Shown piece after piece: positions 745-14,444 of a stretch of DNA of 15,728 bases. The DNA is from a virus (lineage: Duplodnaviria; Heunggongvirae; Uroviricota; Caudoviricetes). The notes under the pieces are model-generated. The model searched no databases, was not told the DNA's origin, and was given only the letters and a program-made list of their open reading frames with translations. The DNA is taken from IMG/VR virus record IMGVR_UViG_2740892229_000020; one strand, written 5' to 3'. The stretch's first letter is position 1. Each line of letters begins with the position of its first letter. The translations under genes and the position numbers were made by a program.

Positions 745-830
745 AATTCCTCCCGCAATGAGTGTGTTACGATTTGCACCTGAAAGTCGGTTCTGTTCCC
801 GCAGACCGACTTTCGCCATTTCTGAACCTG

Positions 831-1376: not shown

Positions 1377-1400
1377 TGCCTTATCAGTTAACGCCGCAGT

Positions 1401-1628
1401 TTAGGCGGCAGAATTACTCGCGTTAAACAATGGTGCGAGGTCGGGACGAATATCTGCTGGTTTAATCTTTCCACCAGTGGCTGAGACAATTTTCATTACA
1501 TAGCGGGCATCAATTCCGCCACCGTGTAGCCAACGCCAAACAGTGGGTTGGGCTACACCGCATAGATCTGCCAGTCGTTTTTGACTACCTGTAATACTGA
1601 TTGCGAGTTGAATGGTTTGATTTGTCAT
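1401..1628 (-). CDS. Cro-like HTH regulator (YdaS/Cro family), ~75 aa
   Basis: Small HTH protein (…QKRLADLCGVAQPTVWRWLHGGG… ATGGKIKPADIRPDL) divergent from the repressor gene. The ORF track starts at a TTG (1634); the ATG at 1626-1628 is preceded by an AGGA Shine-Dalgarno with 7-nt spacing, so I place the start there. Confidence 0.75.
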   Translation of the reverse strand: MTNQTIQLAISITGSQKRLADLCGVAQPTVWRWLHGGGIDARYVMKIVSATGGKIKPADIRPDLAPLFNASNSAA

Positions 1629-1738
1629 TATCAATTCCTATTGGTATTGCAATGAATGAATAATAGCAATGCGTATTAATCCAAGCAATAGCAAAACATG
1701 TTTTGACCATCAATACGCAAGCGTATAAATTAAAACTT
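1629..1738. promoter_or_regulatory. OR-like divergent promoter/operator region between cro-like and CI-like genes
   Basis: About 110 bp of AT-rich intergenic sequence between divergent regulator genes. Contains the palindrome ATTGCAAT (1644-1651), repeated AATAGCAA(T) motifs (1662-1670, 1687-1694) and a plus-strand TTGACC (1704-1709) … TATAAA (1724-1729) pair with a short 14-bp spacer, just upstream of the repressor start. Promoter assignments are tentative. Confidence 0.45.
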
Positions 1739-2431
1739 ATGAAAAAAGAAACTCTTGCTGATCGCTTAAACCTAGCGATGGAACAATCTGGAATGTCTCA
1801 AGGCGCTCTTGCAAAGGCGTCTGGCGTAGCTCAACCCACAATCTGGAGACTGACAAGCGGCAACGCGCGCGGCTCAACAAAAATTGTTGAAATAGCTAAT
1901 GCATTGGGTGTTCGAACAGAATGGCTCTCATCAGGCATAGGCCCGATGAGAAATGACGGTCAACAATCAGGGAAGCCTGCTGTCAGCCATTCCAAATACT
2001 TCAAAATTGACGTTCTTGATATAGAAGTCAGTGCCGGGCCGGGTGTAATCAACCGTGAGTTTGTAGAAGTTCTACGCTCGGTTGAGTACTCGTTTGACGA
2101 TGCTCGTCACATGTTCGATGGCAGGAAGGCGGAAAATATCCGCATCATTAACGTGCGTGGTGACAGCATGTCAGGAACGATCGAACCAGGTGATCTGCTG
2201 TTCGTTGATATCACGGTTAAATCTTTCGACGGTGATGGTATCTATGCGTTTCTGTACGACGACACAGCCCATGTAAAGCGCCTGCAAATGATGAAAGATA
2301 AGCTACTGGTTATCTCTGATAACAAGAGCTACTCACCGTGGGACCCGATCGAGAAAGACGAGATGAACCGGGTGTTCATCTTCGGTAAGGTTATTGGGAG
2401 CATGCCGCAGACGTACAGGAAGCATGGTTAA
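1703..2431 (+). CDS. CI-type prophage repressor (N-terminal HTH, C-terminal LexA-like S24 peptidase domain)
   Basis: HTH segment MSQGALAKASGVAQPTIWRL; Ala-Gly autocleavage-like site (EVSAGPG); catalytic Ser in RGDSMSGTIEPGD and Lys in AHVKRL. Divergent from the cro-like gene. An alternative start at ATG 1739 (MKKETLADRL…) is possible; neither start has a strong Shine-Dalgarno, which would fit a leaderless transcript as for lambda cI. Confidence 0.85.
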   Translation: MTINTQAYKLKLMKKETLADRLNLAMEQSGMSQGALAKASGVAQPTIWRLTSGNARGSTKIVEIANALGVRTEWLSSGIGPMRNDGQQSGKPAVSHSKYFKIDVLDIEVSAGPGVINREFVEVLRSVEYSFDDARHMFDGRKAENIRIINVRGDSMSGTIEPGDLLFVDITVKSFDGDGIYAFLYDDTAHVKRLQMMKDKLLVISDNKSYSPWDPIEKDEMNRVFIFGKVIGSMPQTYRKHG

Positions 2432-2512
2432 TAATTAGCCTGTAGCTTTTTAAGGCACACTCTTTTCAAGAATATTAAATAGAACGCTATATGGCATAAA
2501 CAAGGACTTAGG

Positions 2513-2986
2513 ATGGAAAAGCCTAGCTTCCCACCTCTTCTTACAGCAGGATTTCATGATATGGATAGTGATGGCATCAAGTCTCTTTGTGTCGACACCT
2601 TCCCAAAATCCGTTAGAAGAAGTATGCTATACTGTAATTTTATACAGCTTATTGAGCAATTTAAACTTGTTAATCAGCAGTGTCTATGTTTCTCTGAAGT
2701 GTGGATCGATGGTTCATTCACTACAGAGAAACCTGAACCTGATGACATAGATATACTCGTGGTCGTCGATTATTTGGCCCTAAACTCTTTGCCAAACACG
2801 CTGATGCCATTGGTTAGCTCATTGTTAAATAGAGATTTTATTAAAGAAAACTACAGCATTGACGTTCTTTTGCTGCCTGAAAATCATCCAGAAATCGATT
2901 ATAGTGAAAGGCGAAGTTACTGGAGAGGGTGGTTTGGTTTTGATCGGAAGGAGAATCCTAAAGGCCTCGTGAGGGTAATGTTATGA
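2513..2986 (+). CDS. Small predicted nucleotidyltransferase-fold protein (157 aa), first gene of an AT-rich two-gene module at the rexAB-equivalent position
   Basis: Complete ORF with a Shine-Dalgarno-like AAGGA upstream. Contains a GS-x10-DxD motif (WIDGSFTTEKPEPDDIDILVVVD) characteristic of Pol-beta-type/minimal nucleotidyltransferases. Noticeably AT-rich compared with flanking phage genes. The fold call is from motif inspection only. Confidence 0.6.
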   Translation: MEKPSFPPLLTAGFHDMDSDGIKSLCVDTFPKSVRRSMLYCNFIQLIEQFKLVNQQCLCFSEVWIDGSFTTEKPEPDDIDILVVVDYLALNSLPNTLMPLVSSLLNRDFIKENYSIDVLLLPENHPEIDYSERRSYWRGWFGFDRKENPKGLVRVML

Positions 2987-3915
2987 GCGAAGAAAAAACA
3001 TTCAACTCCCTCAAGGAGCGAATTGCGTTCATTCAACGCGATGTGGATCTGCTTGCTCAAAATAAGGGGAGATCATTTGCTGATGACATTATATTTAGAT
3101 CACTTGACTCCCATCTGAGCGATCTCCGAGAGAGACAACGTGCAATCGATAACCAACATCCTTTACGTGATTTCATGGAGTTGAGATTAAAAGGTGTTTT
3201 GGTCGATTTCGGGTCTATTCCGTTAGATATTCTATCTGTAATTTCAGGTAATCTCGCATCCCTTGTACAGAAAGCAGTTTACCGACTTGGATCTGGGAAA
3301 GATTCTAGTCGTGTGCCGATTGATGTTAAAAAATCATTAGACATGAGATTGGCAGACTTGCGTCCAGGTTCGACGAAGTTAGGTGTTACTTTTTCTACTG
3401 GTTCTTGCGAGCTCATCGAAACAGTATCCAGTCATGCTGTTAAGGAGATTTTTGCACTACTCTCATCCATTGATGAAGAAACATTCACGGCTAAAATTGC
3501 CGAAATTGGTTCGCAATCAACAGCTAACCTAAAAAACATCATAAATGAGTGCGAAAAATATAGTCTTAACTTTGATCTTACTTGGATTGGACCTTTAAGT
3601 GATGGTACCAGACAAGTGTCAATTTCTTCAGAAGATATAAAAAAACTGAATGCTCGCTTAGCTTTAACGAAGGTCATTCAGCTACCGGATGAGCATATAT
3701 CAGGCGAACTTGCTATTTTATCCATGTACGGGAAATTGGAGATTGCAAGCGAGCTTGGAAAAATAAAGGCTTCTTATCCGATTGATATGTTAGGAGAAAT
3801 TCAAAGTAAATATAAAGTTGGTGAACGAATATCGCTCGTAGTAAGCGTTTCTGAGATTCACAATGAAAGATTAGGAACATCACGACGTAACTACATGGTT
3901 AAAAAAATCGAATAG
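2983..3915 (+). CDS. Hypothetical protein (310 aa), second gene of the two-gene module; function unknown
   Basis: Start ATG overlaps the stop of the upstream gene (ATGA at 2983-2986), with GAGGG 9 nt upstream, indicating translational coupling. AT-rich. Followed by a strong intrinsic terminator. No catalytic motif recognised; contains RSLDSH (an Rx4H pattern) that is not diagnostic on its own. Confidence 0.7.
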   Translation: MSEEKTFNSLKERIAFIQRDVDLLAQNKGRSFADDIIFRSLDSHLSDLRERQRAIDNQHPLRDFMELRLKGVLVDFGSIPLDILSVISGNLASLVQKAVYRLGSGKDSSRVPIDVKKSLDMRLADLRPGSTKLGVTFSTGSCELIETVSSHAVKEIFALLSSIDEETFTAKIAEIGSQSTANLKNIINECEKYSLNFDLTWIGPLSDGTRQVSISSEDIKKLNARLALTKVIQLPDEHISGELAILSMYGKLEIASELGKIKASYPIDMLGEIQSKYKVGERISLVVSVSEIHNERLGTSRRNYMVKKIE

Positions 3916-3923
3916 TGATGCTA

Positions 3924-3950
3924 CCCGGCCACCGTGCCGGGTTTTCTTTT
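3924..3950 (+). terminator. Rho-independent terminator closing the CI / two-gene operon
   Basis: 6-bp GC stem CCCGGC (3924-3929) / GCCGGG (3936-3941), loop CACCGT, followed by TTTTCTTTT (3942-3950). Confidence 0.65.
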
Positions 3951-4077
3951 GCCTCCCCCTCATCACACAAACCGTTCGAAAAACCACCATAACCCCCGCT
4001 TCAGTTATCGCTATGCGATGCAAGTCACAAAATTAATTCTTTTTGCTATCAAACATTTAATATCAAAACACATCAGC

Positions 4078-4130
4078 CAATAGCGATAAGTATTGATATC
4101 ACCAATAGCAATAGCTATTATCACCATATC
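4078..4130 (+). promoter_or_regulatory. pL-like early-left promoter with candidate operator repeats
   Basis: TTGATA (4093-4098), 17-bp spacer, TATTAT (4116-4121) on the plus strand. Overlapped by a direct repeat of TATCACC (4097-4103, 4119-4125), AATAGC repeats (4079-4084, 4104-4109, 4110-4115) and the palindrome AATAGCTATT (4110-4119). The AATAGC motif is shared with the OR-like region. Confidence 0.45.
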
Positions 4131-4194
4131 GCAACAACACAACGATACGGCAACCACCTGATTCACCGTTGCGATGACCGCTTAGATCCGCAGC

Positions 4195-4434
4195 TTGAAT
4201 TTCAGCAGGCTCCGGGGAGTGCGAGGGGTGAAGCGGACGCGTGAACGTCGGTGTGACCAGCTGAAATCAACTCAACACTTCATACCTCAGTCGCTTCAAC
4301 GAGGCGACTTAGTTATGACAACCGGCGGCCATCCACCGCCTGAATACGCGCAGAAGTCTCAATATGTTCAGCAGCCCAGCTTACGGGCAGGAGTTTTTTA
4401 TGGTTCATCAACATTACGGAACGCAGACCGTTAA
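4195..4434 (+). CDS. Possible small arginine-rich protein (79 aa); weak candidate for an N-like factor, uncertain
   Basis: ORF begins just downstream of the pL-like promoter with an Arg-rich N-terminus (RLRGVRGVKRTRERR). No convincing Shine-Dalgarno; overlaps the next ORF by 35 nt. Not similar to lambda N as far as I can recall. Confidence 0.2.
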   Translation: MNFSRLRGVRGVKRTRERRCDQLKSTQHFIPQSLQRGDLVMTTGGHPPPEYAQKSQYVQQPSLRAGVFYGSSTLRNADR

Positions 4435-4606
4435 TCGAGGTGCGGTCATGCCAGGAATGCTGGTCAAACACAAAGATGGTACCTGGACTGCATCAGCTAA
4501 TTTACGCGGACGGCTTTATCTGCATCGCGGCATCGAGCGCACTTATACCCGTGATTTGCTCGTAGAAGTTTTTCTCGACGGACGCGGTAACGGCCTGAAT
4601 CACTAA
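4400..4606 (+). CDS. Hypothetical protein (68 aa) occupying the kil position immediately upstream of gam in this segment
   Basis: ATG at 4400 is preceded by AGGAG (4389-4393) with 6-nt spacing. Stop at 4604-4606 falls exactly where homology to the kil-gam junction of the other copy (5516-5518) begins. Confidence 0.45.
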
Positions 4607-4681
4607 TCCCCTTTCCTGTTTTCCTAATCAGCCTGGCATTTCGCGGGCGATATTTTCACAGCCATTTTCAGGAGTTCAGCC

Positions 4682-4882
4682 ATGAACGCTTATTACATTC
4701 AGGATCGTCTTGAGGCTCAGAGCTGGGCACGTCACTACCAGCAGATCGCCCGTGAAGAGAAAGAGGCAGAACTGGCAGACGACATGGAAAAAGGCCTGCC
4801 CCAGCACCTGTTTGAATCGCTATGCATCGATCATTTGCAACGCCACGGGGCCAGCAAAAAAGCCATTACCCGTGCGTTTGAT
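4682..4882 (+). CDS. gam: Gam (host RecBCD inhibitor), 5' portion, truncated by the N run at 4883
   Basis: [67 protein letters not shown]… matches lambda Gam. A second allele of the same sequence, differing by a few synonymous substitutions, is at 5594..5890. Confidence 0.8.
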
Positions 4883-4892
4883 NNNNNNNNNN
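4883..4892. other. Run of 10 N (assembly gap or masked junction)
   Basis: Exactly 10 ambiguous bases; the following 104 bp (4893-4996) are a near-copy of 5007-5110. Confidence 0.95.
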
Positions 4893-4996
4893 AAGCGACT
4901 TAAATGCATATGGTGTTGTGTGTGAGTTCGACTGGAATGATGGAAATGGTCAGGAAGGATGGCCTCCAATGGATGGTAGCGAAGGAATAAGAATTA

Positions 4997-5006
4997 NNNN
5001 NNNNNN
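4997..5006. other. Run of 10 N (assembly gap or masked junction)
   Basis: Exactly 10 ambiguous bases between two near-identical copies of the same coding fragment. Confidence 0.95.
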
Positions 5007-5007
5007 G

Positions 5008-5169
5008 AAAGACTTAAATGCATATGGTGTTGTTTGTGAGTTCGACTGGGATGATGGAAATGGTCAGGAAGGATGGCCTCCAATGGATGGTAGCGAAGGA
5101 ATAAGAATTACCAATATCGATACATCAGGAATATTTGATCCAGATGATATGACTATCAAAGCCGCCTGA
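5008..5169 (+). CDS. 3' end of a hypothetical early-left gene upstream of cIII (possibly ea10-like), truncated at its 5' end by the N run
   Basis: Open frame …KDLNAYGVVCEFDWDDGNGQEGWPPMDGSEGIRITNIDTSGIFDPDDMTIKAA ending at TGA 5167-5169. The same frame is present in the 104-bp fragment at 4894-4996 with a few substitutions. The ea10 assignment is positional only. Confidence 0.4.
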   Translation, partial: KDLNAYGVVCEFDWDDGNGQEGWPPMDGSEGIRITNIDTSGIFDPDDMTIKAA

Positions 5170-5241
5170 GCGCGGCGTTACCGCATACCAATAACGCTTC
5201 ACTCGAGGCGTTTTTCGTTATGTATAAATAAGGAGCACACC

Positions 5242-5406
5242 ATGCAATATGCCATTGCAGGGTGGCCTGTTGCTGGCTGCCCTTCCGAATCTTTACTTGA
5301 ACGAATCACCCGTAAATTACGTGACGGATGGAAACGCCTTATCGACATACTTAATCAGCCAGGAGTCCCGAAAAATGGATCAAACAATTATGGCTATCCA
5401 GACTAA
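5242..5406 (+). CDS. cIII: CIII (protects CII by inhibiting FtsH), 54 aa
   Basis: AGGAG 7 nt upstream of ATG 5242; translation [54 protein letters not shown], near-identical to lambda CIII as I recall it. Shorter than the ORF-track cutoff, so it is not in the track. Confidence 0.85.
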   Translation: MQYAIAGWPVAGCPSESLLERITRKLRDGWKRLIDILNQPGVPKNGSNNYGYPD

Positions 5407-5518
5407 ATTCACTATCGCCACTTTTATTGGCGATGAAAAGATGTTTCGTGAGGCCGTCGACGCTTATAAAAAATGGATATTAATACTGAAACTGAGATCA
5501 AGCAAAAGCATTCACTAA
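5375..5518 (+). CDS. kil: Kil (host cell-division inhibitor), 47 aa
   Basis: ATG 5375 with AGGAG at 5361-5365; [47 protein letters not shown] matches lambda Kil. Overlaps the cIII 3' end in a different frame, as in lambda. Confidence 0.8.
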
Positions 5519-5593
5519 CCCCCTTTCCTGTTTTCCTAATCAGCCTGGCATTTCGCGGGCGATATTTTCACAGCCATTTTCAGGAGTTCAGCC

Positions 5594-5890
5594 ATGAACG
5601 CTTATTACATTCAGGATCGTCTTGAGGCTCAGAGCTGGGCACGTCACTACCAGCAGATCGCCCGTGAAGAGAAAGAGGCAGAACTGGCAGACGACATGGA
5701 AAAAGGTCTTCCACAGCACCTGTTTGAATCACTCTGCATCGATCATTTGCAACGCCACGGGGCCAGCAAAAAAGCCATTACCCGTGCGTTTGATGACGAT
5801 GTTGAGTTTCAGGAGCGCATGGCAGAACACATCCGGTACATGGTTGAAACCATTGCTCACCACCAGGTTGATATTGATTCAGAGGTATAA
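5594..5890 (+). CDS. gam: Gam (RecBCD inhibitor), 98-aa short form
   Basis: Complete ORF whose translation matches lambda Gam; sits directly upstream of bet. Confidence 0.9.
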
Positions 5891-5895
5891 AACGG

Positions 5896-6501
5896 ATGAG
5901 TACAGCACTAGCAACGCTGGCAGGGAAGCTGGCTGAACGTGTCGGCATGGATTCTGTCGACCCACAGGAACTGATCACCACTCTTCGCCAGACGGCATTT
6001 AAAGGTGATGCCAGCGATGCGCAGTTCATCGCATTACTGATCGTTGCCAACCAGTACGGCCTTAATCCGTGGACGAAAGAAATTTACGCCTTTCCTGATA
6101 AGCAGAATGGCATCGTTCCGGTGGTGGGCGTTGATGGCTGGTCCCGCATCATCAATGAAAACCAGCAGTTTGATGGCATGGACTTTGAGCAGGACAATGA
6201 ATCCTGTACATGCCGGATTTACCGCAAGGACCGTAATCATCCGATCTGCGTTACCGAGTGGATGGATGAATGCCGTCGCGAACCATTCAAAACCCGCGAA
6301 GGCAGAGAAATTACGGGGCCGTGGCAGTCGCATCCCAAACGGATGTTACGGCATAAAGCCATGATTCAGTGTGCCCGTCTGGCCTTCGGATTTGCGGGTA
6401 TCTATGACAAGGATGAAGCCGAGCGCATTGTCGAAAATACCGCATACACTGCAGAACGTCAGCCGGAACGCGACATCACTCCGGTTAACGATGAAACCAT
6501 G
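5896..6501 (+). CDS. bet: Bet (Red-beta single-strand annealing protein), copy 1, 3'-truncated by the N run at 6502
   Basis: MSTALATLAGKLAERVGMDSVDPQELITTLRQTAFKGDASDAQFIALLIVANQYGLNPWTKEIYAFPDKQNG… matches lambda Bet. The frame continues to the N run. Confidence 0.85.
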
Positions 6502-6511
6502 NNNNNNNNNN
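6502..6511. other. Run of 10 N (assembly gap or masked junction)
   Basis: Sequence after the run restarts inside the gam 3' end and repeats bet with substitutions. Confidence 0.95.
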
Positions 6512-6512
6512 A

Positions 6513-6587
6513 CGCATGGCAGAACACATCCGGTACATGGTTGAAACTATTGCCCGCCACCAGGTTGATATTGATTCAGAGGTATAA
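6513..6587 (+). CDS. gam: Gam 3'-terminal fragment (second allele; redundant with 5816-5890)
   Basis: Frame [24 protein letters not shown] ending at TAA 6585-6587; differs from copy 1 (ETIAHHQ) by substitution. Confidence 0.5.
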   Translation, partial: RMAEHIRYMVETIARHQVDIDSEV

Positions 6588-6592
6588 AACGG

Positions 6593-7291
6593 ATGAGTAC
6601 AGCACTCGCAACGCTGGCAGGGAAGCTGGCTGAACGTGTCGGCATGGATTCTGTCGACCCACAGGAACTGATCACCACTCTTCGCCAGACAGCATTTAAA
6701 GGCGATGCCAGCGATGCGCAGTTCATCGCATTGCTGATCGTCGCCAACCAATACGGCCTTAATCCGTGGACGAAAGAAATTTACGCCTTCCCTGATAAGC
6801 AGAACGGCATCGTTCCGGTGGTGGGCGTTGATGGCTGGTCCCGCATCATCAACGAAAACCAGCAGTTTGACGGCATGGACTTTGAACAGGACAACGAATC
6901 CTGCACATGCCGGATTTACCGCAAAGACCGCAATCATCCGATCTGCGTTACCGAGTGGATGGATGAATGCCGCCGCGAACCATTCAAAACCCGCGAAGGC
7001 AGAGAAATCACCGGACCGTGGCAGTCGCATCCCAAACGGATGTTACGGCATAAAGCCATGATTCAGTGTGCCCGTCTGGCCTTCGGATTTGCTGGTATCT
7101 ATGACAAGGATGAAGCCGAGCGCATTGTCGAAAATACCGCATACACCGCAGAACGTCAGCCGGAACGCGACATTACTCCGGTTAACGATGAAACCATGCA
7201 GGAGATTAACACTCTGCTGATTGCCCTGGACAAAACATGGGATGACGACTTATTGCCGCTCTGTTCCCAGATATTTCGCCGCGACATTCGC
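6593..7291 (+). CDS. bet: Bet (Red-beta), copy 2, truncated near its 3' end by the N run at 7292
   Basis: Same protein as copy 1 with scattered synonymous differences; extends 93 bp further than copy 1 before the N run. Confidence 0.85.
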
Positions 7292-7301
7292 NNNNNNNNN
7301 N
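7292..7301. other. Run of 10 N (assembly gap or masked junction)
   Basis: The 93 bp after the run (7302-7394) repeat the 93 bp before it (7199-7291) with a few substitutions. Confidence 0.95.
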
Positions 7302-7481
7302 CAGGAGATTAACACTCTGCTGATCGCCCTGGATAAAACATGGGATGACGACTTATTGCCGCTCTGTTCCCAGATATTTCGCCGCGACATTCGCGCATCG
7401 TCAGAACTGACACAGGCCGAAGCAGTGAAAGCTCTTGGATTCCTGAAACAGAAAGCCACTGAGCAGAAGGTGGCAGCATGA
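7302..7481 (+). CDS. bet: Bet 3'-terminal fragment (continues into exo)
   Basis: In-frame [59 protein letters not shown] ending at TGA 7479-7481, which overlaps the exo ATG at 7478 (ATGA). Confidence 0.75.
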
Positions 7482-8158
7482 CACCGGACATTATCCTGCA
7501 GCGTACCGGGATCGACGTGAGAGCTGTCGAACAGGGGGATGATGCATGGCACAAATTACGGCTCGGCGTCATCACCGCTTCAGAAGTTCACAACGTGATA
7601 GCAAAGCCCCGCTCAGGAAAGAAGTGGCCTGACATGAAAATGTCCTACTTCCACACCCTGCTGGCTGAGGTTTGCACCGGTGTGGCTCCGGAAGTTAATG
7701 CTAAGGCGCTGGCCTGGGGAAAACAGTACGAGAACGACGCCAGAACCCTGTTTGAATTCACTTCCGGCGTGAATGTTACTGAATCCCCGATCATCTATCG
7801 CGACGAAAGTATGCGCACCGCCTGCTCTCCCGATGGTTTATGCAGTGACGGCAACGGCCTTGAACTGAAATGCCCGTTTACCTCCCGGGATTTCATGAAG
7901 TTCCGGCTCGGTGGTTTCGAGGCCATAAAGTCGGCTTACATGGCCCAGGTGCAGTACAGCATGTGGGTGACGCGAAAAGATGCCTGGTACTTTGCCAACT
8001 ATGACCCGCGTATGAAGCGTGAAGGCCTGCATTATGTCGTGATTGAGCGGAATGAAAAGTACATGGCGAATTTTGACGAGATGGTGCCGGAGTTCATCGA
8101 AAAAATGGACGTGGCACTGGCTGAAATTGGTTTTGTATTTGGGGAGCAATGGCGATGA
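7478..8158 (+). CDS. exo: Exo (Red-alpha 5'-3' exonuclease), 226 aa
   Basis: Full-length match to lambda exonuclease ([65 protein letters not shown]…GEQWR); ATGA overlap with bet. Confidence 0.92.
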
Positions 8159-8316
8159 AGCATCCTCACGATAATATCCGGGTAGGCGCGATCACTTTCA
8201 TCTACTCCGTTACAAAGCGAGGCTGGGTATTTCCCGGCCTTTCTGTTATCAGAAATCCACTGAAAGCACAGCGGCTGGCTGAGGCGATAAATAATAAACG
8301 GGGGCTGTATGACTGA
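8155..8316 (+). CDS. Small protein, lambda orf60a-like with an altered C-terminus (53 aa)
   Basis: ATG 8155 overlaps the exo stop (ATGA). [53 protein letters not shown]; the first ~47 residues match the 60-aa orf60a-like ORF at 9389..9571. Confidence 0.5.
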
Positions 8317-8866
8317 TTTCACCGGAAGCAATACTCCTGCCGAACATCGCGACAGCTGGCGCACACCACCAGAGATTTTTGCTGCGCTTAATGCAGAGTT
8401 CGTTTTTCAACTTGATGCTGCCGCCAGCGAAAAAAACCGACTATGTCGGCTTTTTATCTCACAGGAGCAGAACACATTAACCACTTCATGGCCTGAAGCA
8501 ATGGGATATGCCTCTGGTTATGTCTGGTTGAATCCACCATACAGCAATATTTCCCCTTTTGTGAAAAAGGCAGCCACTGAAAACAAATTCAGTAGTGTGG
8601 GATGTGTAATGTTATTGCCTGCTGACACATCTGTCGGATGGTTTCATGAAGCGATACAAACCGCCAGTGAGGTCAGATTCATCACGGCAGGACGACTGGC
8701 ATTTATTAACCCACTCACTGAGAAACCCGTCAGTGGAAATAATAAAGGCTCGATGCTCATTATCTGGCACCCATACCCCCGTACACACTGCCACTTTACG
8801 ACCGTTGATCGTGGAGAGTTGATGGCGTTCGGCTCAAGGATTCTTGCCCGTCGGGAGGCTGCATGA
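8309..8866 (+). CDS. Phage-type DNA N6-adenine methyltransferase (Dam family), 185 aa
   Basis: Catalytic NPPY motif (YVWLNPPYSN). Size and overall sequence character fit the small phage Dam N6-A methyltransferase family. Start overlaps the upstream ORF. Confidence 0.75.
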   Translation: MTDFTGSNTPAEHRDSWRTPPEIFAALNAEFVFQLDAAASEKNRLCRLFISQEQNTLTTSWPEAMGYASGYVWLNPPYSNISPFVKKAATENKFSSVGCVMLLPADTSVGWFHEAIQTASEVRFITAGRLAFINPLTEKPVSGNNKGSMLIIWHPYPRTHCHFTTVDRGELMAFGSRILARREAA

Positions 8867-8942
8867 CAACCACGGAATGCATTTTTCTGGCAGCGGGCTT
8901 CATATTCTGTGTGCTTATGCTTGCCGACATGGGACTTGTTCA

Positions 8943-9158
8943 ATGACACCTCAGCAGGAAAACGCCCTTCGCAGCATTGCCCGTCAGGCTAATTCTGAAA
9001 TCAAAAAAGCCAGACAGCAGTTTCCGGATAAAAACGTCGATGACATTTGCCGTAGCGTACTAAAGAAGCACCGCGAAACGGTAACGCTGATGGGATTCAC
9101 ACCGACTCATTTAAGCCTGGCGATCGGCATGTTAAACGGCGTCTTTAAGGAACGGTGA
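8943..9158 (+). CDS. Hypothetical early-left protein, 71 aa (lambda orf61 region)
   Basis: MTPQQENALRSIARQANSEIKKARQQFPDKNVDDICRSVLKKHRETVTLMGFTPTHLSLAIGMLNGVFKER; present identically in both cassette variants (second copy inside 9716..10027). An N-terminal extension from an upstream start (TTG 8844) is possible. Confidence 0.55.
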   Translation: MTPQQENALRSIARQANSEIKKARQQFPDKNVDDICRSVLKKHRETVTLMGFTPTHLSLAIGMLNGVFKER

Positions 9159-9180
9159 ACATGAAAAGCAAAATCATCAG

Positions 9181-9204
9181 GGAGCTACAGGCTCCTTTTT
9201 TATT
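9181..9204 (+). terminator. Candidate intrinsic terminator (tL-like) inside the early-left operon
   Basis: Stem GGAGC (9181-9185) / GCTCC (9191-9195), loop TACAG, then TTTTTTATT. Confidence 0.45.
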
Positions 9205-9265
9205 GTTCGCATTCATCCTCAAGCGTATTAACCAACAATTCAGGGATTAATGGAAGATGGCAGAC

Positions 9266-9275
9266 NNNNNNNNNN
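9266..9275. other. Run of 10 N (assembly gap or masked junction)
   Basis: Sequence before the run ends at …TGGAAGATGGCAGAC, which recurs at 10118-10135; sequence after the run restarts inside the exo 3' end. Confidence 0.95.
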
Positions 9276-9392
9276 GTTGAGCGGGATGAAAAGTACATAG
9301 CGAGTTTTGACGAGATGGTGCCGGAGTTCATCGAAAAAATGGACGAGGCACTGGCTGAAATTGGTTTTGTATTTGGGGAGCAATGGCGATGA
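9276..9392 (+). CDS. exo: Exo 3'-terminal fragment (second allele; redundant with 8042-8158)
   Basis: In-frame [38 protein letters not shown] followed by TGA 9390-9392. Confidence 0.6.
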
Positions 9393-9571
9393 CGCATCCT
9401 CACGATAATATCCGGGTAGGCGCGATTACTTTCGTCTACTCCGTTACAAAGCGAGGCTGGGTATTTCCCGGCCTTTCTGTTATCCGAAATCCACTGAAAG
9501 CACAGCGGCTGGCTGAGGAGATAAATAATAAACGAGGGGCTGTATGCACAAAGCATCTCCTGTTGAGTTAA
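9389..9571 (+). CDS. Lambda orf60a-like protein, 60 aa
   Basis: ATG overlaps the exo stop (ATGA). [60 protein letters not shown] matches my recall of lambda orf60a. Confidence 0.65.
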
Positions 9572-9735
9572 GAACGAGTATCGAGATGGCACATAGCCTC
9601 GCTCAAATTGGAGTCAGGTTTGTGCCAATACCAGTAGAAACAGACGAAGAATTTCATACGTTAGCCGCATCCCTTTCACAAAAGCTGGAAATGATGGTGG
9701 CGAAAGCAGAAGCAGATGAGAGAGACCAGGTATGA
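9544..9735 (+). CDS. Lambda orf63-like protein, 63 aa
   Basis: 63-codon ORF overlapping the orf60a 3' end and overlapped by the next ORF by 20 nt, which is the arrangement I recall for orf63/orf61 in lambda. Confidence 0.65.
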   Translation: MHKASPVELRTSIEMAHSLAQIGVRFVPIPVETDEEFHTLAASLSQKLEMMVAKAEADERDQV

Positions 9736-10027
9736 CAACCACGGAATGCATTTTTCTGGCAGCGGGCTTCATATTTTGTGTGCTTATGCTTGCCGACATG
9801 GGACTTGTTCAATGACACCTCAGCAAGAAAACGCCCTTCGCAGCATTGCCCGTCTGGCTAACTCTGAAATCAAAAAAGCCAGACAGCAGTTTCCGGATAA
9901 AAACGTCGATGACATTTGCCGTAGCGTACTAAAGAAGCACCGCGAAACGGTAACGCTGATGGGATTCACACCGACTCATTTAAGTCTGGCGATCGGCATG
10001 TTAAACGGCGTCTTTAAGGAGCGATGA
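9716..10027 (+). CDS. Hypothetical early-left protein (lambda orf61 region), 103 aa from ATG 9716; shares its C-terminal 71 aa with 8943..9158
   Basis: ATG 9716 lies 20 nt before the orf63 stop. An alternative shorter start is MTPQQ at 9812, which has a GGGA Shine-Dalgarno-like element. Confidence 0.55.
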   Translation: MRETRYDNHGMHFSGSGLHILCAYACRHGTCSMTPQQENALRSIARLANSEIKKARQQFPDKNVDDICRSVLKKHRETVTLMGFTPTHLSLAIGMLNGVFKER

Positions 10028-10049
10028 ACATGAAAAGCAAAATCATCAG

Positions 10050-10073
10050 GGAGCTACAGGCTCCTTTTTTATT
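10050..10073 (+). terminator. Candidate intrinsic terminator (second copy of the 9181..9204 hairpin)
   Basis: GGAGC (10050-10054), loop TACAG, GCTCC (10060-10064), then TTTTTTATT. Confidence 0.45.
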
Positions 10074-10125
10074 GTTCGCATTCACCCTCAAGCGTATTAA
10101 CCAACAATTCAGGGATTAATGGAAG

Positions 10126-10347
10126 ATGGCAGACATCATTGATTCAGCATCAGAAATTGAAGAATTACAGCGCAACACAGCAATAAAAATGCGCCGCCTG
10201 AACCACCAGGCTATATCTGCCACTCATTGTTGTGAGTGTGGCGATCCGATAGATGAACGAAGACGCCTGGTCGTTCAGGGTTGTCGGACTTGTGCAAGTT
10301 GCCAGGAGGATCTGGAGCTTATCAGTAAACAGAGAGGTTCGAAGTGA
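10126..10347 (+). CDS. TraR/DksA-family C4 zinc-finger protein (lambda orf73-like), 73 aa
   Basis: Four-cysteine motif CCECGDPIDERRR…GCRTCASCQ with TraR-like size and spacing. Lambda orf73 is a TraR homologue from memory. Confidence 0.75.
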   Translation: MADIIDSASEIEELQRNTAIKMRRLNHQAISATHCCECGDPIDERRRLVVQGCRTCASCQEDLELISKQRGSK

Positions 10348-10760
10348 GCGAAATTAACTCTCAGGCACTGCGTGAGGCGGCAGTAGCAATTGAAACAGTA
10401 GCAACGCCTCAAAAATTGCTGGCATTTCGTATGAAAGTCACACCTCAGGTTGTGCTGGCACTGCTGGATGAACGGGAAAGAAACCAGCAATACATCAAAC
10501 GCCGCGACCAAGAGAACGAGGATATTGCGTTAACGGTAGGGAAGTTGCGCGTTGAGCTTGAGGCAGAAAAACAGCGGGCAAAGGATCTGTTTATGGAAAA
10601 TGCTCGGCTTAAGTCAGGTATAGCCGGTCTGATACACCTCGGTATTCGATATGCAGATGTTGAGGTCATGAGAATTGCTGGAGATGCCCAGCTTTCTACC
10701 CCATGCACTGACAGCATCATAAACAGCATTGCAACAGGCATTCGCATCAAAGGAGAGTGA
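10344..10760 (+). CDS. Ead/Ea22-like protein (138 aa)
   Basis: GTG start overlapping the upstream stop (GTGA). N-terminus MSEINSQALREAA…, LDERERNQQYIKRRDQENEDIALTVGKLRVELEAEKQ coiled-coil segment and C-terminal …GIRIKGE are typical of Ead/Ea22-like prophage proteins as I recall them. Confidence 0.55.
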   Translation: MSEINSQALREAAVAIETVATPQKLLAFRMKVTPQVVLALLDERERNQQYIKRRDQENEDIALTVGKLRVELEAEKQRAKDLFMENARLKSGIAGLIHLGIRYADVEVMRIAGDAQLSTPCTDSIINSIATGIRIKGE

Positions 10761-10761
10761 T

Positions 10762-11427
10762 ATGAGCGCTATAACCAAAGAACGTATCAAATTATTCATT
10801 AAAAATCCGCTTGATAACGGACTTACTCGTGGCGAACAAATGGAACTGGCACGAATTGCACTGGCATCACTGGAACGCGAACAGATTCGCCACGAGCATG
10901 CCAAATGGTCTGACTCCACATTTGGCTGCGTTGGCCCCATTGGTCCGCTGAAACATCTCTCAAAAGAGGCACTGGAAGCCGCAGCCGAACCTGACGATCT
11001 CAGCGAGTGGGCTGATATGCAGTTCCTGTTGTGGGATGCACAGCGCCGTGCTGGTATCAGTGATGCTGAAATTACCGCTGCTATGGAAAATAAATTGAAG
11101 ATCAACATGGAGCGCCAGTGGCCTGAACCAAAAGATGGTGAGCCTCGTTTGCACATTAAAGAACCCGGCAACTCTCCGGTAACTCCGGATGGTTGGATAA
11201 GCTGTAGTGAGCGAATGCCTGAAATGGGAGAGCGACAATGCTATGTGTTAGCAGCTGACTTTAAAAACAACTACCCACCAAACATCCCCAACACTCAGGT
11301 CGGCGTATATGGCGACTGGTTTAATGATGGCAAGCCCACTTGGGATGACGGTGATGGCGAAGACCTGTATCTCAAAGAGGTAACCCACTGGATGCAGCTA
11401 CCAGAACCGCCGCAGGAGGTGAAATGA
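10762..11427 (+). CDS. DUF551-like prophage protein (221 aa)
   Basis: AGGAG 6 nt upstream of ATG 10762. C-terminal segment …CYVLAADFKNNYPPNIPNTQVGVYGDWFNDGKPTWDDGDGEDLYLKEVTHWMQLPEPPQ matches the characteristic DUF551 C-terminus from memory. Confidence 0.65.
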   Translation: MSAITKERIKLFIKNPLDNGLTRGEQMELARIALASLEREQIRHEHAKWSDSTFGCVGPIGPLKHLSKEALEAAAEPDDLSEWADMQFLLWDAQRRAGISDAEITAAMENKLKINMERQWPEPKDGEPRLHIKEPGNSPVTPDGWISCSERMPEMGERQCYVLAADFKNNYPPNIPNTQVGVYGDWFNDGKPTWDDGDGEDLYLKEVTHWMQLPEPPQEVK

Positions 11428-11510
11428 TGAATTGGCCTGAAGCATTCACCGCAGTTGGAGTTGCAATAGCGGTGGCATTTATTCTGTATTCGCTTTTCCG
11501 CTGGGGATAA
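11424..11510 (+). CDS. Small hydrophobic peptide (28 aa), predicted single transmembrane helix
   Basis: Strong Shine-Dalgarno AGGAGG (11414-11419) 4 nt upstream; ATG overlaps the upstream stop (ATGA). MMNWPEAFTAVGVAIAVAFILYSLFRWG. Below the ORF-track size cutoff. Confidence 0.5.
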   Translation: MMNWPEAFTAVGVAIAVAFILYSLFRWG

Positions 11511-11514
11511 AGGA

Positions 11515-11757
11515 ATGTTCGCTCTGATTCAACGTGGTCAGATATACACGGACAGAGCCGGATACCCTGTGGTGATTACTCGCAGTACTCAGCACTCAGT
11601 GTTCTTTCGACGCATGGACGGGCGCTCCGGACGGGTACGCATTGGTGAGTTCAACAACCTGTTCGAACATATTGACCAACAGGAGTACCGCAAAATTCTG
11701 GCGGGCACTGAGCAGGAAATGCGCCTGAAAAAATTACGCGCAATGCAACGGAGGTGA
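11515..11757 (+). CDS. Hypothetical protein, 80 aa (possibly DUF4222-like)
   Basis: Complete ORF in the early-left gene string; MFALIQRGQIYTDRAGYPVVITRSTQHSVFFRRMDGRSGRVRIGEFNNLFEHIDQQEYRKILAGTEQEMRLKKLRAMQRR. Family call is a weak recollection. Confidence 0.55.
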   Translation: MFALIQRGQIYTDRAGYPVVITRSTQHSVFFRRMDGRSGRVRIGEFNNLFEHIDQQEYRKILAGTEQEMRLKKLRAMQRR

Positions 11758-11783
11758 TACATGCATACGGCTTTTGAGTTCTG

Positions 11784-11793
11784 NNNNNNNNNN
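11784..11793. other. Run of 10 N (assembly gap or masked junction)
   Basis: Interrupts an ORF that begins at ATG 11761 (MHTAFEF…) and resumes in-frame sequence after the run. Confidence 0.95.
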
Positions 11794-11794
11794 A

Positions 11795-11878
11795 GAAGCC
11801 AAAGATAAAATCATCGCTGAGCAGGAGAAAATCGCTAACGGAGAAAAGACAGTAAGTCAGTATATGAAAACCGCATGA
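11795..11878 (+). CDS. 3'-terminal fragment of a hypothetical gene (possibly ea8.5-like), probably the same gene that starts at 11761 before the N run
   Basis: In-frame …EAKDKIIAEQEKIANGEKTVSQYMKTA ending at TGA 11876-11878. The ea8.5 assignment is positional only. Confidence 0.35.
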   Translation, partial: EAKDKIIAEQEKIANGEKTVSQYMKTA

Positions 11879-11933
11879 TATCATCAGATAAAAATCGGTC
11901 GTAAAGCGAAATATTAATACCAGAACAAACGAG

Positions 11934-11957
11934 TCGAGGTAAATTATATTACCTCGA
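11934..11957 (-). terminator. Candidate terminator hairpin downstream of the minus-strand membrane-protein gene
   Basis: Perfect 9-bp inverted repeat TCGAGGTAA (11934-11942) / TTACCTCGA (11949-11957) with a 6-nt loop; a U-rich tract follows on the minus strand (CTCGTTTGTTCTG). Confidence 0.35.
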
Positions 11958-11991
11958 TAAATTAACTAAAACTTGCCCGCTATATACTATA

Positions 11992-12594
11992 TCATTCAGT
12001 ATCATCACGCGCGGTCTGTGCATATGTCACTACCGCACCTAATATATTAATTTTCTTTTCAACATAGATAATATTATCGTACTCATAATTGCCATACGGA
12101 TAGCAAATGCGAATATTCTCATGTAGTTCGGGGTCATCCACCTCAGCTCCAGAACAACTTTTTGAACTACCGGAAGTATACCGATACGGTGCAACATAAG
12201 ACGATGTCTCTCCAGGCAAAAAATAAGTTAGTGTCGTAAGGGGTATAATCAGAAAAAATCCAGCAAATATGCACATCCCTGCATAAACCTTAAGGTATGC
12301 TGACAGACTCTTCCAGCCTCTTTGTTTTACTATCCCCTTCTTAACCCAAAACAGAGATAACAGAAAAGCTATTCCCATGCTAAACAGAATGTAATAGTGG
12401 GATATACTCTGATTAAGAAACGTGACCCTGTAGATATCTGCCCGCCACCAGAAGAAAAGGAAAATAAAGATCAGCCCTGAAACTGTCATGCAAATCAAAT
12501 AAGGATACGAATCTTTTTTCATGTTTAGCGCCCATAAAATTTTTCCTGACCCGGACAAATTTACCATCCATTTTTTGCGCAGAAAATAGCTCAT
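11992..12594 (-). CDS. Predicted integral membrane protein (about 3 TM helices plus a C-terminal soluble domain), AT-rich reverse-oriented accessory gene
   Basis: Minus-strand ORF of 200 aa (176 aa if the start is the internal Met at 12520-12522). Hydrophobic segments YLICMTVSGLIFIFLFFWW, YYILFSMGIAFLLSLFWV and VYAGMCIFAGFFLIIPLTTLTYFL. Opposite orientation to all surrounding phage genes and markedly AT-rich. Confidence 0.6.
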   Translation of the reverse strand: MSYFLRKKWMVNLSGSGKILWALNMKKDSYPYLICMTVSGLIFIFLFFWWRADIYRVTFLNQSISHYYILFSMGIAFLLSLFWVKKGIVKQRGWKSLSAYLKVYAGMCIFAGFFLIIPLTTLTYFLPGETSSYVAPYRYTSGSSKSCSGAEVDDPELHENIRICYPYGNYEYDNIIYVEKKINILGAVVTYAQTARDDTE

Positions 12595-12836
12595 TACTTA
12601 CTGCACAATAATACACAAAATTGCGTAAATTTTTTGCATGGATTTTAGCTCTTTCAGCCGAAATTTAAGGGGTAAATAGCATTTCCTAAAAGCAACTGCA
12701 CCAACCCAACAGAATGGGCTACCGCTTACGTTGAGAGCAAAAAAGTGTATAGCAGCAATGAACAGCATCCTCGCACTGACGAGGATTTCTTTTATCTGAA
12801 CTCGCTACGGCGGGTTTTGTTTTATGGAGATGATAA

Positions 12837-13004
12837 ATGCACTTCCGAGTCACAGGTGAATGGAATGGAGAACCATTCAACAGAGTTATCGAAGCCGAGA
12901 ACATCAGCGACTGCTATGACCACTGGATGCTGTGGGCGCAGATAGCACATGCAGACGTAACCAATATTCGAATTGAAGAACTGAAAGAACACCAAGCCGC
13001 CTGA
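12837..13004 (+). CDS. Lambda orf55-like small protein (55 aa) just upstream of xis
   Basis: GGAGA 7 nt upstream of ATG 12837; MHFRVTGEWNGEPFNRVIEAENISDCYDHWMLWAQIAHADVTNIRIEELKEHQAA; followed by a terminator hairpin. Below the ORF-track cutoff. Confidence 0.55.
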   Translation: MHFRVTGEWNGEPFNRVIEAENISDCYDHWMLWAQIAHADVTNIRIEELKEHQAA

Positions 13005-13017
13005 TGGCGGTTTTTTC
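12994..13017 (+). terminator. Rho-independent terminator after the orf55-like gene
   Basis: Stem AAGCCGCC (12994-13001) / GGCGGTT, loop TGAT, then a T-tract (13011-13016). Confidence 0.6.
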
Positions 13018-13043
13018 TTGCGTGTAATTGCGGAGACTTTGCG

Positions 13044-13262
13044 ATGTACTTGACACTTCAGGAGTGGAACGCACGCCAGCGACGCCCAAGAAGCCTTGAA
13101 ACAGTTCGTCGATGGGTACGCGAGTGCAGGATATTCCCTCCTCCGGTTAAGGATGGAAGAGAGTATCTGTTCCACGAATCAGCGGTAAAGGTTGACTTAA
13201 ATCGACCAGTAACAGGTAGCCTTTTGAAGAGGATCAGAAATGGGAAGAAGGCGAAGTCATGA
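13044..13262 (+). CDS. xis: Excisionase Xis (72 aa)
   Basis: MYLTLQEWNARQRRPRSLETVRRWVRECRIFPPPVKDGREYLFHESAVKVDLNRPVTGSLLKRIRNGKKAKS matches lambda Xis; overlaps the int start by 23 nt as in lambda. Confidence 0.92.
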   Translation: MYLTLQEWNARQRRPRSLETVRRWVRECRIFPPPVKDGREYLFHESAVKVDLNRPVTGSLLKRIRNGKKAKS

Positions 13263-14310
13263 GCGCCGGGATTTACCCCCTAACCTTTATATAAGAAACA
13301 ATGGATATTACTGCTACAGGGACCCAAGGACGGGTAAAGAGTTTGGATTAGGCAGAGACAGGCGAATCGCAATCACTGAAGCCATACAGGCCAACATTGA
13401 GTTATTTTCAGGACACAAACACAAGCCTCTGACAGCGAGAATCAACAGTGATAATTCCGTTACATTACATTCATGGCTTGATCGCTACGAAAAAATCCTG
13501 GCCAGCAGAGGAATCAAGCAGAAGACACTCATAAATTACATGAGCAAAATTAAAGCAATAAGGAGGGGTCTGCCTGATGCTCCACTTGAAGACATCACCA
13601 CAAAAGAAATTGCGGCAATGCTCAATGGATACATAGACGAGGGCAAGGCGGCGTCAGCCAAGTTAATCAGATCAACACTGAGCGATGCATTCCGAGAGGC
13701 AATAGCTGAAGGCCATATAACAACAAACCCTGTCGCTGCCACTCGCGCAGCAAAATCAGAGGTAAGGAGATCAAGACTTACGGCTGACGAATACCTGAAA
13801 ATTTATCAAGCAGCAGAATCATCACCATGTTGGCTCAGACTTGCAATGGAACTGGCTGTTGTTACCGGGCAACGAGTTGGTGATTTATGCGAAATGAAGT
13901 GGTCTGATATCGTAGATGGATATCTTTATGTCGAGCAAAGCAAAACAGGCGTAAAAATTGCCATCCCAACAGCATTGCATGTTGATGCTCTCGGAATATC
14001 AATGAAGGAAACACTTGATAAATGCAAAGAGATTCTTGGCGGAGAAACCATAATTGCATCTACTCGTCGTGAACCGCTTTCATCCGGCACAGTATCAAGG
14101 TATTTTATGCGCGCACGAAAAGCATCAGGTCTTTCCTTCGAAGGGGATCCGCCTACCTTTCACGAGTTGCGCAGTTTGTCTGCAAGACTCTATGAGAAGC
14201 AGATAAGCGATAAGTTTGCTCAACATCTTCTCGGGCATAAGTCGGACACCATGGCATCACAGTATCGTGATGACAGAGGCAGGGAGTGGGACAAAATTGA
14301 AATCAAATAA
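13240..14310 (+). CDS. int: Tyrosine integrase Int (lambda-type), 356 aa
   Basis: Full-length match to lambda Int (MGRRRSHERRDLPPNLYIRNNGYYCYRDPRTGKEFGLGRDRRIAITEAIQ… catalytic region …HELRSLSARLYEKQISDKFAQHLLGHKSDTMASQYRDDRG). Confidence 0.95.
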   Translation: MGRRRSHERRDLPPNLYIRNNGYYCYRDPRTGKEFGLGRDRRIAITEAIQANIELFSGHKHKPLTARINSDNSVTLHSWLDRYEKILASRGIKQKTLINYMSKIKAIRRGLPDAPLEDITTKEIAAMLNGYIDEGKAASAKLIRSTLSDAFREAIAEGHITTNPVAATRAAKSEVRRSRLTADEYLKIYQAAESSPCWLRLAMELAVVTGQRVGDLCEMKWSDIVDGYLYVEQSKTGVKIAIPTALHVDALGISMKETLDKCKEILGGETIIASTRREPLSSGTVSRYFMRARKASGLSFEGDPPTFHELRSLSARLYEKQISDKFAQHLLGHKSDTMASQYRDDRGREWDKIEIK

Positions 14311-14399
14311 TGATTTTATTTTGACTGATAGTGACCTGTTCGTTGCAACAAATTGATAAGCAATGCTTTTTTATAATGCCAACTTAGTATAAAAAAGCA
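14311..14399. other. attL: P' arm with arm-type sites, and the 15-bp core TTAGTATAAAAAAGC (14385-14399) at the prophage-host junction
   Basis: Reverse complement of 14368-14399 reads GCTTTTTTATACTAAGTTGGCATTATAAAAAAGC, which contains the lambda att core GCTTTTTTATACTAA followed by P'-arm sequence. The sequence beyond 14399 (…AGCAGGCTTCA…) matches the attB B-arm flank upstream of ybhC. Confidence 0.85.
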
Positions 14400-14444
14400 G
14401 GCTTCAACGGATTCATTTTTCTATTTCATAGCCCGGAGCAACCT

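Follow-up and report, generated by a model that had tools for sequence, protein, structure and literature searches.

A viral scaffold in which short-read contigs of at least three lambdoid prophages were very probably laid in one line

Seven contigs and their gene content

The window, i.e., the whole 15,728-nt stretch of DNA that was analysed (IMG/VR virus record IMGVR_UViG_2740892229_000020), is divided by six runs of N into seven contigs (A to G). As stated in a preliminary description made from the sequence alone, each of these runs is exactly 10 N long (starting at 4883, 4997, 6502, 7292, 9266 and 11784), and a scan of the whole window revealed no N outside them. All six placeholders are thus of a single fixed length, as expected of an assembly artefact. 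The gene content is that of the early-left and integration region of a lambdoid phage (gam-bet-exo, the cIII-kil region, xis-int and an att core by ybhC), as judged from the RefSeq annotation of colinear loci, the Gam and Bet translations (identical to references), an Rfam match and a match to the att core.

Every contig matches closed genomes at 99.7–100%, and these matches are spread over three different lambdoid prophages. The corresponding paths are referred to as P1 (reference: the argU-site prophage L003 of Escherichia coli O178:H19 strain 2012C-4431, NZ_CP024289, with Escherichia phage PhiR30_1, PV340558.1, as second reference), P2 (the mlrA prophage L002 of E. coli strain 2013C-4991, NZ_CP027355) and P3 (the att-lambda/ybhC prophage L004, located 1.9 Mb from L002 in the same NZ_CP027355 genome). 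The features are as follows (strand given where assigned).

Contig A, 1..4882, P1 type, 4881/4882 identical to L003 (4880/4882 to PhiR30_1)
O replication gene, partial, - strand
831-1370, - strand, YdaT-domain gene
1401-1628, - strand, cro-like gene
1739-2431, + strand, cI-like repressor gene
2513-3915, PDC-M63-like gene pair
4400-4606, kil-like gene
4682-4882, first 201 nt of gam, at the end of the contig
N run 1, 4883..4892, 10 N
Contig B, 4893..4996, + strand, 104-nt allele fragment of the DUF2528 gene, P3 type, 104/104 identical to L004
N run 2, 4997..5006, 10 N
Contig C, 5007..6501, + strand, P2 type, 1491/1495 identical to L002
DUF2528 gene, 3′ part
5229-5287, cIII thermoregulator RNA (Rfam match)
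5242-5406, cIII
5375-5518, kil
5594-5890, gam, complete
5896-6501, bet, first 606 nt
N run 3, 6502..6511, 10 N
Contig D, 6512..7291, + strand, parallel to the last part of C and the beginning of E
6512-6587, last 76 nt of the P1 gam
6593-7291, second bet, first 699 nt
N run 4, 7292..7301, 10 N
Contig E, 7302..9265, + strand, mostly P1, 1962/1964 identical to L003 and PhiR30_1
7302-7481, the window's only bet 3′ end
7478-8158, exo
8155-8316, DUF1317 gene
8309-8866, Dam methyltransferase gene (Dam Pfam match)
8943-9158, hypothetical gene
9257-9265, first 9 nt of traR, at the end of the contig
N run 5, 9266..9275, 10 N
Contig F, 9276..11783, + strand, P2 type, 2506/2508 identical to L002
9276-9392, exo 3′ fragment
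9389-9571, DUF1317 gene
9544-9735, DUF1382 gene
9812-10027, hypothetical gene
10126-10347, TraR/DksA gene
ea22-like remnant
10861-11427, dATP/dGTP pyrophosphohydrolase-DUF551 gene
11515-11757, DUF4222 gene
N run 6, 11784..11793, 10 N, false adjacency of the P2 tail and P3
Contig G, 11794..15728, + strand, P3 type plus chromosome, 3935/3935 identical to L004
11992-12594, - strand, hypothetical gene
12837-13004, hypothetical gene
13044-13262, xis
13240-14310, int
14384-14398, lambda att core GCTTTTTTATACTAA, exact match
14445-15728, ybhC

Redundant segments and split genes

Comparison of the window with itself recovered all five redundancies listed in the preliminary description, with slightly corrected coordinates, together with a sixth pair absent from it.

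4600-4882 vs 5512-5794, 277/283 identical
4893-4996 vs 5007-5110, 99/104 identical
5815-6501 vs 6512-7198, 661/687 identical
7199-7291 vs 7302-7394, 91/93 identical
8863-9265 vs 9732-10134, 395/403 identical
8043-8311 vs 9277-9546, 96.3% identical with one indel (the additional pair)

The fifth pair had been described as the end of 9159-9265 recurring at 10030-10135; this repeat is real, but it actually extends over 8863-9265, and the partner coordinates were 1–2 nt off. The sixth pair means that the 3′ end of exo is present a second time, at the start of contig F. The copies are adjacent and in direct orientation, and all six pairs start or stop at an N run, with copies that are 96.3–98% alike rather than identical, as would be expected of parallel alleles. 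The claim that repeats border every N run held for five of the six, which are flanked by near-identical redundant sequence (about 96–98%), but not for the run at 11784, where self-comparison found no repeat.

A single gam was found to be split between contigs, with its 5′ part ending contig A, its 3′ part opening contig D, and a complete paralogous gam in between. In both L003 and PhiR30_1, the distance from A to D is exactly 20 nt, which match C 5795-5814 without a difference, and it is this 20-mer (GACGATGTTGAGTTTCAGGA) that is missing between A 4882 and D 6512. When A 4682-4882, the 20 nt and D 6512-6587 are joined, they translate to exactly the 98-aa Gam of L003. Moreover, bet reaches 786 nt from either of its 5′ parts (606 or 699 nt) only by way of the one 3′ end, at 7302/7395-7481, and contig E directly adjoins the end of C (gap = 0) in L002, L003 and L004. 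ORF callers running across the N runs call chimeric proteins, e.g., 5896-6633 and 6593-7312.

The adjacent, directly oriented copies, and the fact that lambdoid prophages do recombine, could be taken to indicate genuine tandem duplications within one prophage, with the N runs as small unsequenced gaps. Such an event should leave both copies complete or create one definable novel junction, and neither was found: the first gam breaks off after 201 nt and resumes only 1.6 kb further downstream, beyond the DUF2528-cIII-kil-gam-bet of another prophage, with exactly 20 nt missing, while both bet copies are truncated and have one 3′ end in common. Tandem duplication was rejected on the split gam and the common bet 3′ end. 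In addition, all copy boundaries fall on an N run and follow a k-1 = 60 rule (see below), and the layout occurs in no closed E. coli genome (n = 5426) or phage record (n = 50,697), so that this explanation retains virtually no probability. The duplications are an assembly artefact, not biology.

Three prophage paths in closed genomes

Comparison with closed E. coli genomes returned three separate prophages and not the window layout. A genuine duplication would be expected to recur in independent finished genomes, and no place covering at least 80% of the window was found (0/5426 closed E. coli genomes and 0/50,697 phage records). The best closed genome compresses the window to 11,417 bp, and the C|D junction maps solely as two permuted pieces (best 12 records). 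A pattern across N run 3 was also searched for in collections of genome, viral and metagenome contigs; it matches the window itself, but gave no match in any of the three. Conversely, paths from which the redundancy has been removed are colinear with finished genomes, as an artefact predicts.

For P1, the rebuilt path (A + 20 nt + D + E) differs from L003 at 3 of 7553 nt and forms a single contiguous prophage there. The argU prophage of NZ_CP024289 and PhiR30_1 are colinear with A, D and E at 99.4–99.98% identity and have the same order of O, YdaT-domain/cII, cro, cI, two hypothetical genes, kil and gam, followed by bet, exo, orf60a, dam, orf61 and traR. They differ from the window in having a single gam and a single bet, and in running on into a DUF4222 gene and an intD-type integrase instead of into F or G.

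For P2, contig C, 647 nt of E (7395-8041) and F are contiguous in L002 at mlrA, and the sequence beyond F runs into xisR-int-mlrA. The rebuilt path showed 6 mismatches in 4743 nt against this prophage, which is 99.7–99.9% identical to C and F. For P3, the att-lambda prophage of the same strain (2013C-4991) matches contigs B and G at 100% identity, whereas B differs at 5 positions both from L002 and from contig C; the att-lambda prophage also has a 767-nt segment of its own that is not present in the window. The two 2013C-4991 prophages have a near-identical DUF2528-cIII-kil-gam-bet region in common, but are located 1.9 Mb apart, unlike in the window.

Contig G is a copy of nothing in the window, being instead a second way in which F can continue after position 10359: the two diverge at the first base of G (the fork base, vs. 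F 10360), and the preceding 60 nt in L004 are identical to F 10300-10359. Both sides of the F|G junction were never found in one place among the 5426 closed E. coli genomes (never within 800 nt), and in NZ_CP027355 they lie 1.9 Mb apart. The reading of the F tail as a real insertion between traR and G was rejected because of the fork base at the start of G and because closed genomes never have the two sides within 800 nt of each other; this 1424-nt tail (10360-11783) is not located between them. The N run at 11784 is a false join of two different prophages, which goes beyond what the preliminary description had proposed.

The same matches bear on whether the parallel contigs come from at least two E. 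coli strains, through mixing or contamination of the sample or from a metagenome, which would still make the layout an allele-linearising artefact. Among the matches listed, no closed genome holds P1 together with P2 and P3, and no P1-type prophage of the 2013C-4991 genome itself is among them. However, the NZ_CP027355 chromosome alone holds P2 and P3 with the alleles of C, F, B and G, so that paralogy within one genome suffices for most of the redundancy, and Shiga-toxin-type strains commonly carry many lambdoid prophages. A mixed sample is therefore quite unlikely, and all three prophages presumably resided in one genome.

Contig edges and the assembly graph

The positions at which the contigs start and stop were compared with a graph made from the three prophage paths, for which all odd k from 21 to 127 were tested. 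At k = 61, this graph reproduced 6/6 contig starts and 4/6 contig ends, while no contig end was reproduced at any other odd k in that range. A variant base stands at the start of five of the six contigs that follow an N run (B, C, D, F and G; the first base of F mismatches E 8042). Contigs A, B and D each end exactly 60 nt beyond the last mismatch to their parallel contig (contig C in the case of A), and the end of C conforms to the same spacing (6501 = 6441 + 60, with 6441 being variant in L004). The contigs are hence without their 5′ k-1 bases but with the 3′ ones, a pattern that agrees with Velvet, in which the label of a node is made up of the final nucleotides of its k-mers (PMC3488206).

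The three-path graph did not reproduce the ends of E (9265) and F (11783). The former lies 60 nt after 9205, which is variant in L004 and in the generic att-lambda prophage L001, but it is not reproduced because both of these references also differ at 9216; this end would need a further, unseen path. For the latter, no parallel sequence is known that accounts for it, and it stays unmatched. Apart from these two of six ends, the window resembles Velvet-like de Bruijn scaffolds in its fixed minimal placeholder, in nodes running from the first variant base to k-1 bases past the last one, and in parallel repeat or allele nodes that are placed in series, which points to a Velvet-like assembler. Velvet writes a minimum of 10 N per gap; a literature search for this minimum found nothing.

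It is improbable that the 10-N spacer instead stems from reference-guided tiling outside the assembler rather than from paired-end scaffolding inside it. From A to G, the contigs do stand in exactly the order in which they start on a generic att-lambda prophage (e.g., L001). Stand-alone contig files, however, normally retain the k-1 overlap on both sides, and the absence of the 5′ k-1 bases next to retained 3′ ones is in keeping with node labels joined up within a Velvet-like assembler.

We therefore consider it very probable that the window is a scaffolding artefact in which short-read de Bruijn contigs of at least three lambdoid prophages stand in one line. The preliminary description, which had suspected that redundant contigs or alternative alleles of paralogous lambdoid prophages were concatenated, is borne out by the directly observed redundancy, the colinearity of the paths with three prophages in closed genomes, the k = 61 pattern of the contig edges, the gam divided between two contigs, and the absence of the layout from the closed E. 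coli genomes and phage records searched. The source E. coli sample would have contained at least three lambdoid prophages with early-left (gam-bet-exo) regions that are 96–99% identical, and the assembly graph would fork and merge at each run of variants. Its nodes would then have been arranged one after another according to where they fall on a generic prophage, and gaps estimated at zero or less would have received the minimum placeholder of 10 N. The paths really present would be A + 20 nt + D/E for an argU-type prophage like PhiR30_1 (P1), C + 647 nt of E (7395-8041) + F, on towards xisR-int-mlrA (P2), and B ... G for a prophage at att-lambda beside ybhC (P3). Given these three paths, the segments that occur twice (gam, bet, the 3′ end of exo and the DUF1317/traR-upstream sequence) would be parallel alleles written in series.

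At face value, the scaffold would suggest that the Red recombination genes are tandemly duplicated, that gam, bet and traR occur as truncated pseudogenes, and that one prophage mixes the immunity/replication genes, accessory genes and att-lambda integrase of three phages, all of which are false or unsupported. The earlier caution that gene content and order need verification was justified, as order and copy number cannot be trusted here and the three paths lie separately in closed genomes. In particular, it does not follow from this scaffold that the immunity/replication genes of A and the integrase of G come from one prophage. Work on the number of prophages, gene order, mosaicism or pseudogenes in this region should start from the three paths taken separately or from a long-read assembly, and the k-1 edge rule offers a cheap means, requiring nothing but sequence, of spotting such artefacts.

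Finally, alleles are swapped in the tails of the contigs that carry the bet 5′ parts: contig D is P2-type from 7093 on (with the alleles of L002 over 7093-7231), whereas C and the start of E are P1-type from 6396 on. Gene conversion within bet between co-resident prophages of the source strain could explain such a switch, just as the A...G backbone could be a true att-lambda hybrid prophage, but we regard this as rather unlikely. The switch falls in 6318-6396, one of only two intervals between variants that exceed 60 nt, where a k = 61 graph can mis-phase, and an assembly error is therefore the simpler reading of the C/D swap. The swapped alleles in the C and D tails are an observation beyond the account given in the preliminary description.

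Contigs and direct repeats

The data support reading the apparent gene duplications as parallel alleles that stem from three or more lambdoid prophages and that the scaffolder placed one after another. The window holds six N runs of exactly 10 N each (at 4883, 4997, 6502, 7292, 9266 and 11784), with no other N along its whole length, and these set apart seven contigs.

Contigs of the window
1-4882: contig A
4893-4996: contig B
5007-6501: contig C
6512-7291: contig D
7302-9265: contig E
9276-11783: contig F
11794-15728: contig G

Comparison of the window with itself revealed six direct repeats, all of which touched an N run.

Direct repeats and their identity
4600-4882 (end of A) and 5512-5794 (C): 277/283
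4893-4996 (B) and 5007-5110 (start of C): 99/104
5815-6501 (end of C) and 6512-7198 (start of D): 661/687
7199-7291 (end of D) and 7302-7394 (start of E): 91/93
8043-8311 (E) and 9277-9546 (start of F): 96.3%
8863-9265 (end of E) and 9732-10134 (F): 395/403

The five repeat pairs listed in the preliminary description were all recovered at nearly the same coordinates, while the 8043/9277 pair had been overlooked. Redundancy, said there to border every N run, was found at five of the six; self-comparison of the window showed no repeat around the run at 11784.

Three prophage types in finished genomes

Among 5426 complete E. coli genomes, no place covered at least 80% of the window, and the source scaffold itself was absent from the public collections searched. 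The best complete genome, that of strain EC77 (L001), packs the 15,728 nt into 11,417 bp, because the A/C, C/D, D/E and E/F mappings overlap, and F 10359 there runs directly into G 11794. When searched contig by contig, finished genomes yielded three prophage types. For the first (P1), contig A was 4881/4882 identical to a prophage that strain 2012C-4431 carries at the argU/intD site (L003, NZ_CP024289); there, exactly 20 nt (GACGATGTTGAGTTTCAGGA, the same as C 5795-5814) separate A from D, and E comes after D (identity 1962/1964); the complete genome of phage PhiR30_1 has the same arrangement. For the second (P2), C (1491/1495) and F (2506/2508) matched the mlrA prophage of strain 2013C-4991 (L002, NZ_CP027355), in which the start of E occupies the 740 nt between C and F, and F continues into xisR, int and mlrA. 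For the third (P3), B (104/104) and G (3935/3935) were identical to a second prophage of the 2013C-4991 chromosome (L004), which occupies att-lambda next to ybhC and is 1.9 Mb away from the one at mlrA. G includes an exact copy of the lambda att core (14384-14398) between int and ybhC, and 767 nt specific to L004 are absent from the window. Rebuilt as A + 20 nt + D (6512-7050) + C (6354-6501) + E, the P1 path differed from L003 by 3 mismatches in 7553 nt; rebuilt as C (5007-6353) + D (7051-7291) + E (7395-8041) + F, the P2 path differed from L002 by 6 in 4743 nt.

The gam and bet genes show how these alleles were interleaved. The gam starting at 4682 breaks off after 201 nt at the first N run and resumes at 6512, where its final 76 nt form the beginning of contig D; between the two halves, contig C has a gam that is complete (5594-5890). 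Rejoined through the missing 20 nt, the halves encode a 98-aa protein identical to Gam of L003 and one residue different from that of contig C. Real tandem duplication was rejected, since it would not split one gam around a complete paralogue. Likewise, bet begins twice (5896-6501 and 6593-7291), truncated each time, and only one bet 3′ end, at the start of E, is there to extend either copy to 786 nt; once completed, both encode the same Bet protein, which L002 and L004 also have. Nucleotide differences between the bet alleles at 5896-6501 and 6593-7198 are all synonymous. The ORFs 4682-4903, 5896-6633 and 6593-7312, read across N runs in a mechanical scan, are chimeras.

At the sixth N run, F 10360-11783, a tail with DUF4222, an ea22-like remnant and a dATP/dGTP pyrophosphohydrolase-DUF551 gene, is part of the mlrA-type path, and G is the other branch of a fork at 10359/10360. 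A 600-nt query joining the last 300 nt of F to the first 300 nt of G found 1270 records with one half, and none of the 5426 closed genomes had both halves in one place. The written F|G adjacency is therefore false, and the window is chimeric at its last N run also.

A mixed sample, instead of three paralogues in one genome, would agree with the absence of all three prophage types from any one genome among the top closed-genome matches listed, but we regard it as a minor and quite improbable alternative. Under either origin the duplication itself is not real, and what lies beneath it is ordinary, known biology: lambdoid modules for the early-left region and for integration, a prophage at att-lambda, and gam, bet and exo that are single-copy in each prophage.

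Contig edges and the assembly graph

Contig starts sit on variant bases: B and C begin on the same homologous base, at which they differ, and D, F and G each open with a base unlike its counterpart in the parallel contig (C 5815, E 8042 and F 10360, respectively). In the closed genome, G is preceded by the same 60 nt as F 10300-10359. For contigs A, B and D the end comes exactly 60 nt past the last mismatch to the parallel contig, and C ends 60 nt past 6441, a variant site in L004. De Bruijn graphs were made from the three reconstructed paths at all odd k from 21 to 127; node boundaries at k = 61 included six of six contig starts and four of six ends, and no other odd k in this range reproduced any of the ends. 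Velvet labels a node by the last nucleotides of its k-mers (PMC3488206). A node written in this way starts at its first variant base and ends k-1 after the last. An origin of the breakpoints in a k = 61 graph is well supported, and, together with the separate prophages, the split gam and the shared bet 3′ end, it bears out the earlier suggestion that concatenated alleles of paralogous lambdoid prophages produced artefactual duplications. Velvet may also write 10 N wherever a gap is short or negative, for which a literature search found no support; the assembler is inferred to have been Velvet-like.

The ends of E (9265) and F (11783) were not reproduced by the three reference paths. That of E lies 60 nt past 9205, a site variant in L004 and L001; as both also differ at 9216, an additional unseen path must be assumed. 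These two ends suggest that the source sample contained one or more other related prophages.

A query across the C|D junction gave two-piece permuted matches only, inside a single gam-bet (best 12 records). L002 alleles are found in the tail of D (7093-7231) and L003 alleles in the tail of C and at the start of E, with the switch falling within 6318-6396. Real gene conversion between prophages could leave such a switch but seems unlikely: in the C/D overlap only two stretches between variants exceed 60 nt, 6318-6396 being one of them, and it is in these two that phasing by a k = 61 graph can fail.

Other genes and elements

Further features of the contigs
831-1370 (-): YdaT_toxin-domain protein (Pfam 5.5e-29) in the place of cII, with the O replication gene and cro on either side
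2513-3915 (+): two overlapping genes just downstream of the cI-like repressor, the position of lambda rexAB
5229-5287 (+): lambda cIII thermoregulator RNA (RF01804) at the cIII start in contig C (Rfam 88.5 bits, cutoff 50)
11992-12594 (-): 200-aa ORF in contig G between traR and xis, on the opposite strand

The 200-aa ORF matched nothing in Pfam or PADLOC, and every closed genome examined lists it as hypothetical. The pair at 2513-3915, encoding a DUF6932 protein of 157 aa and a 310-aa protein with no Pfam match, matches the PADLOC candidate anti-phage defence pair PDC-M63 A (7e-43) and B (4e-42), and is also present in phage PhiR30_1, L001 and L003. The gene at 831-1370 is named cII in the PhiR30_1 annotation. 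In 2013C-4991, cII, cro and the cI-type repressor share protein accessions between the mlrA and att-lambda prophages (L002 3991-5294 and L004 7415-8718), and both co-residents therefore have the same immunity.
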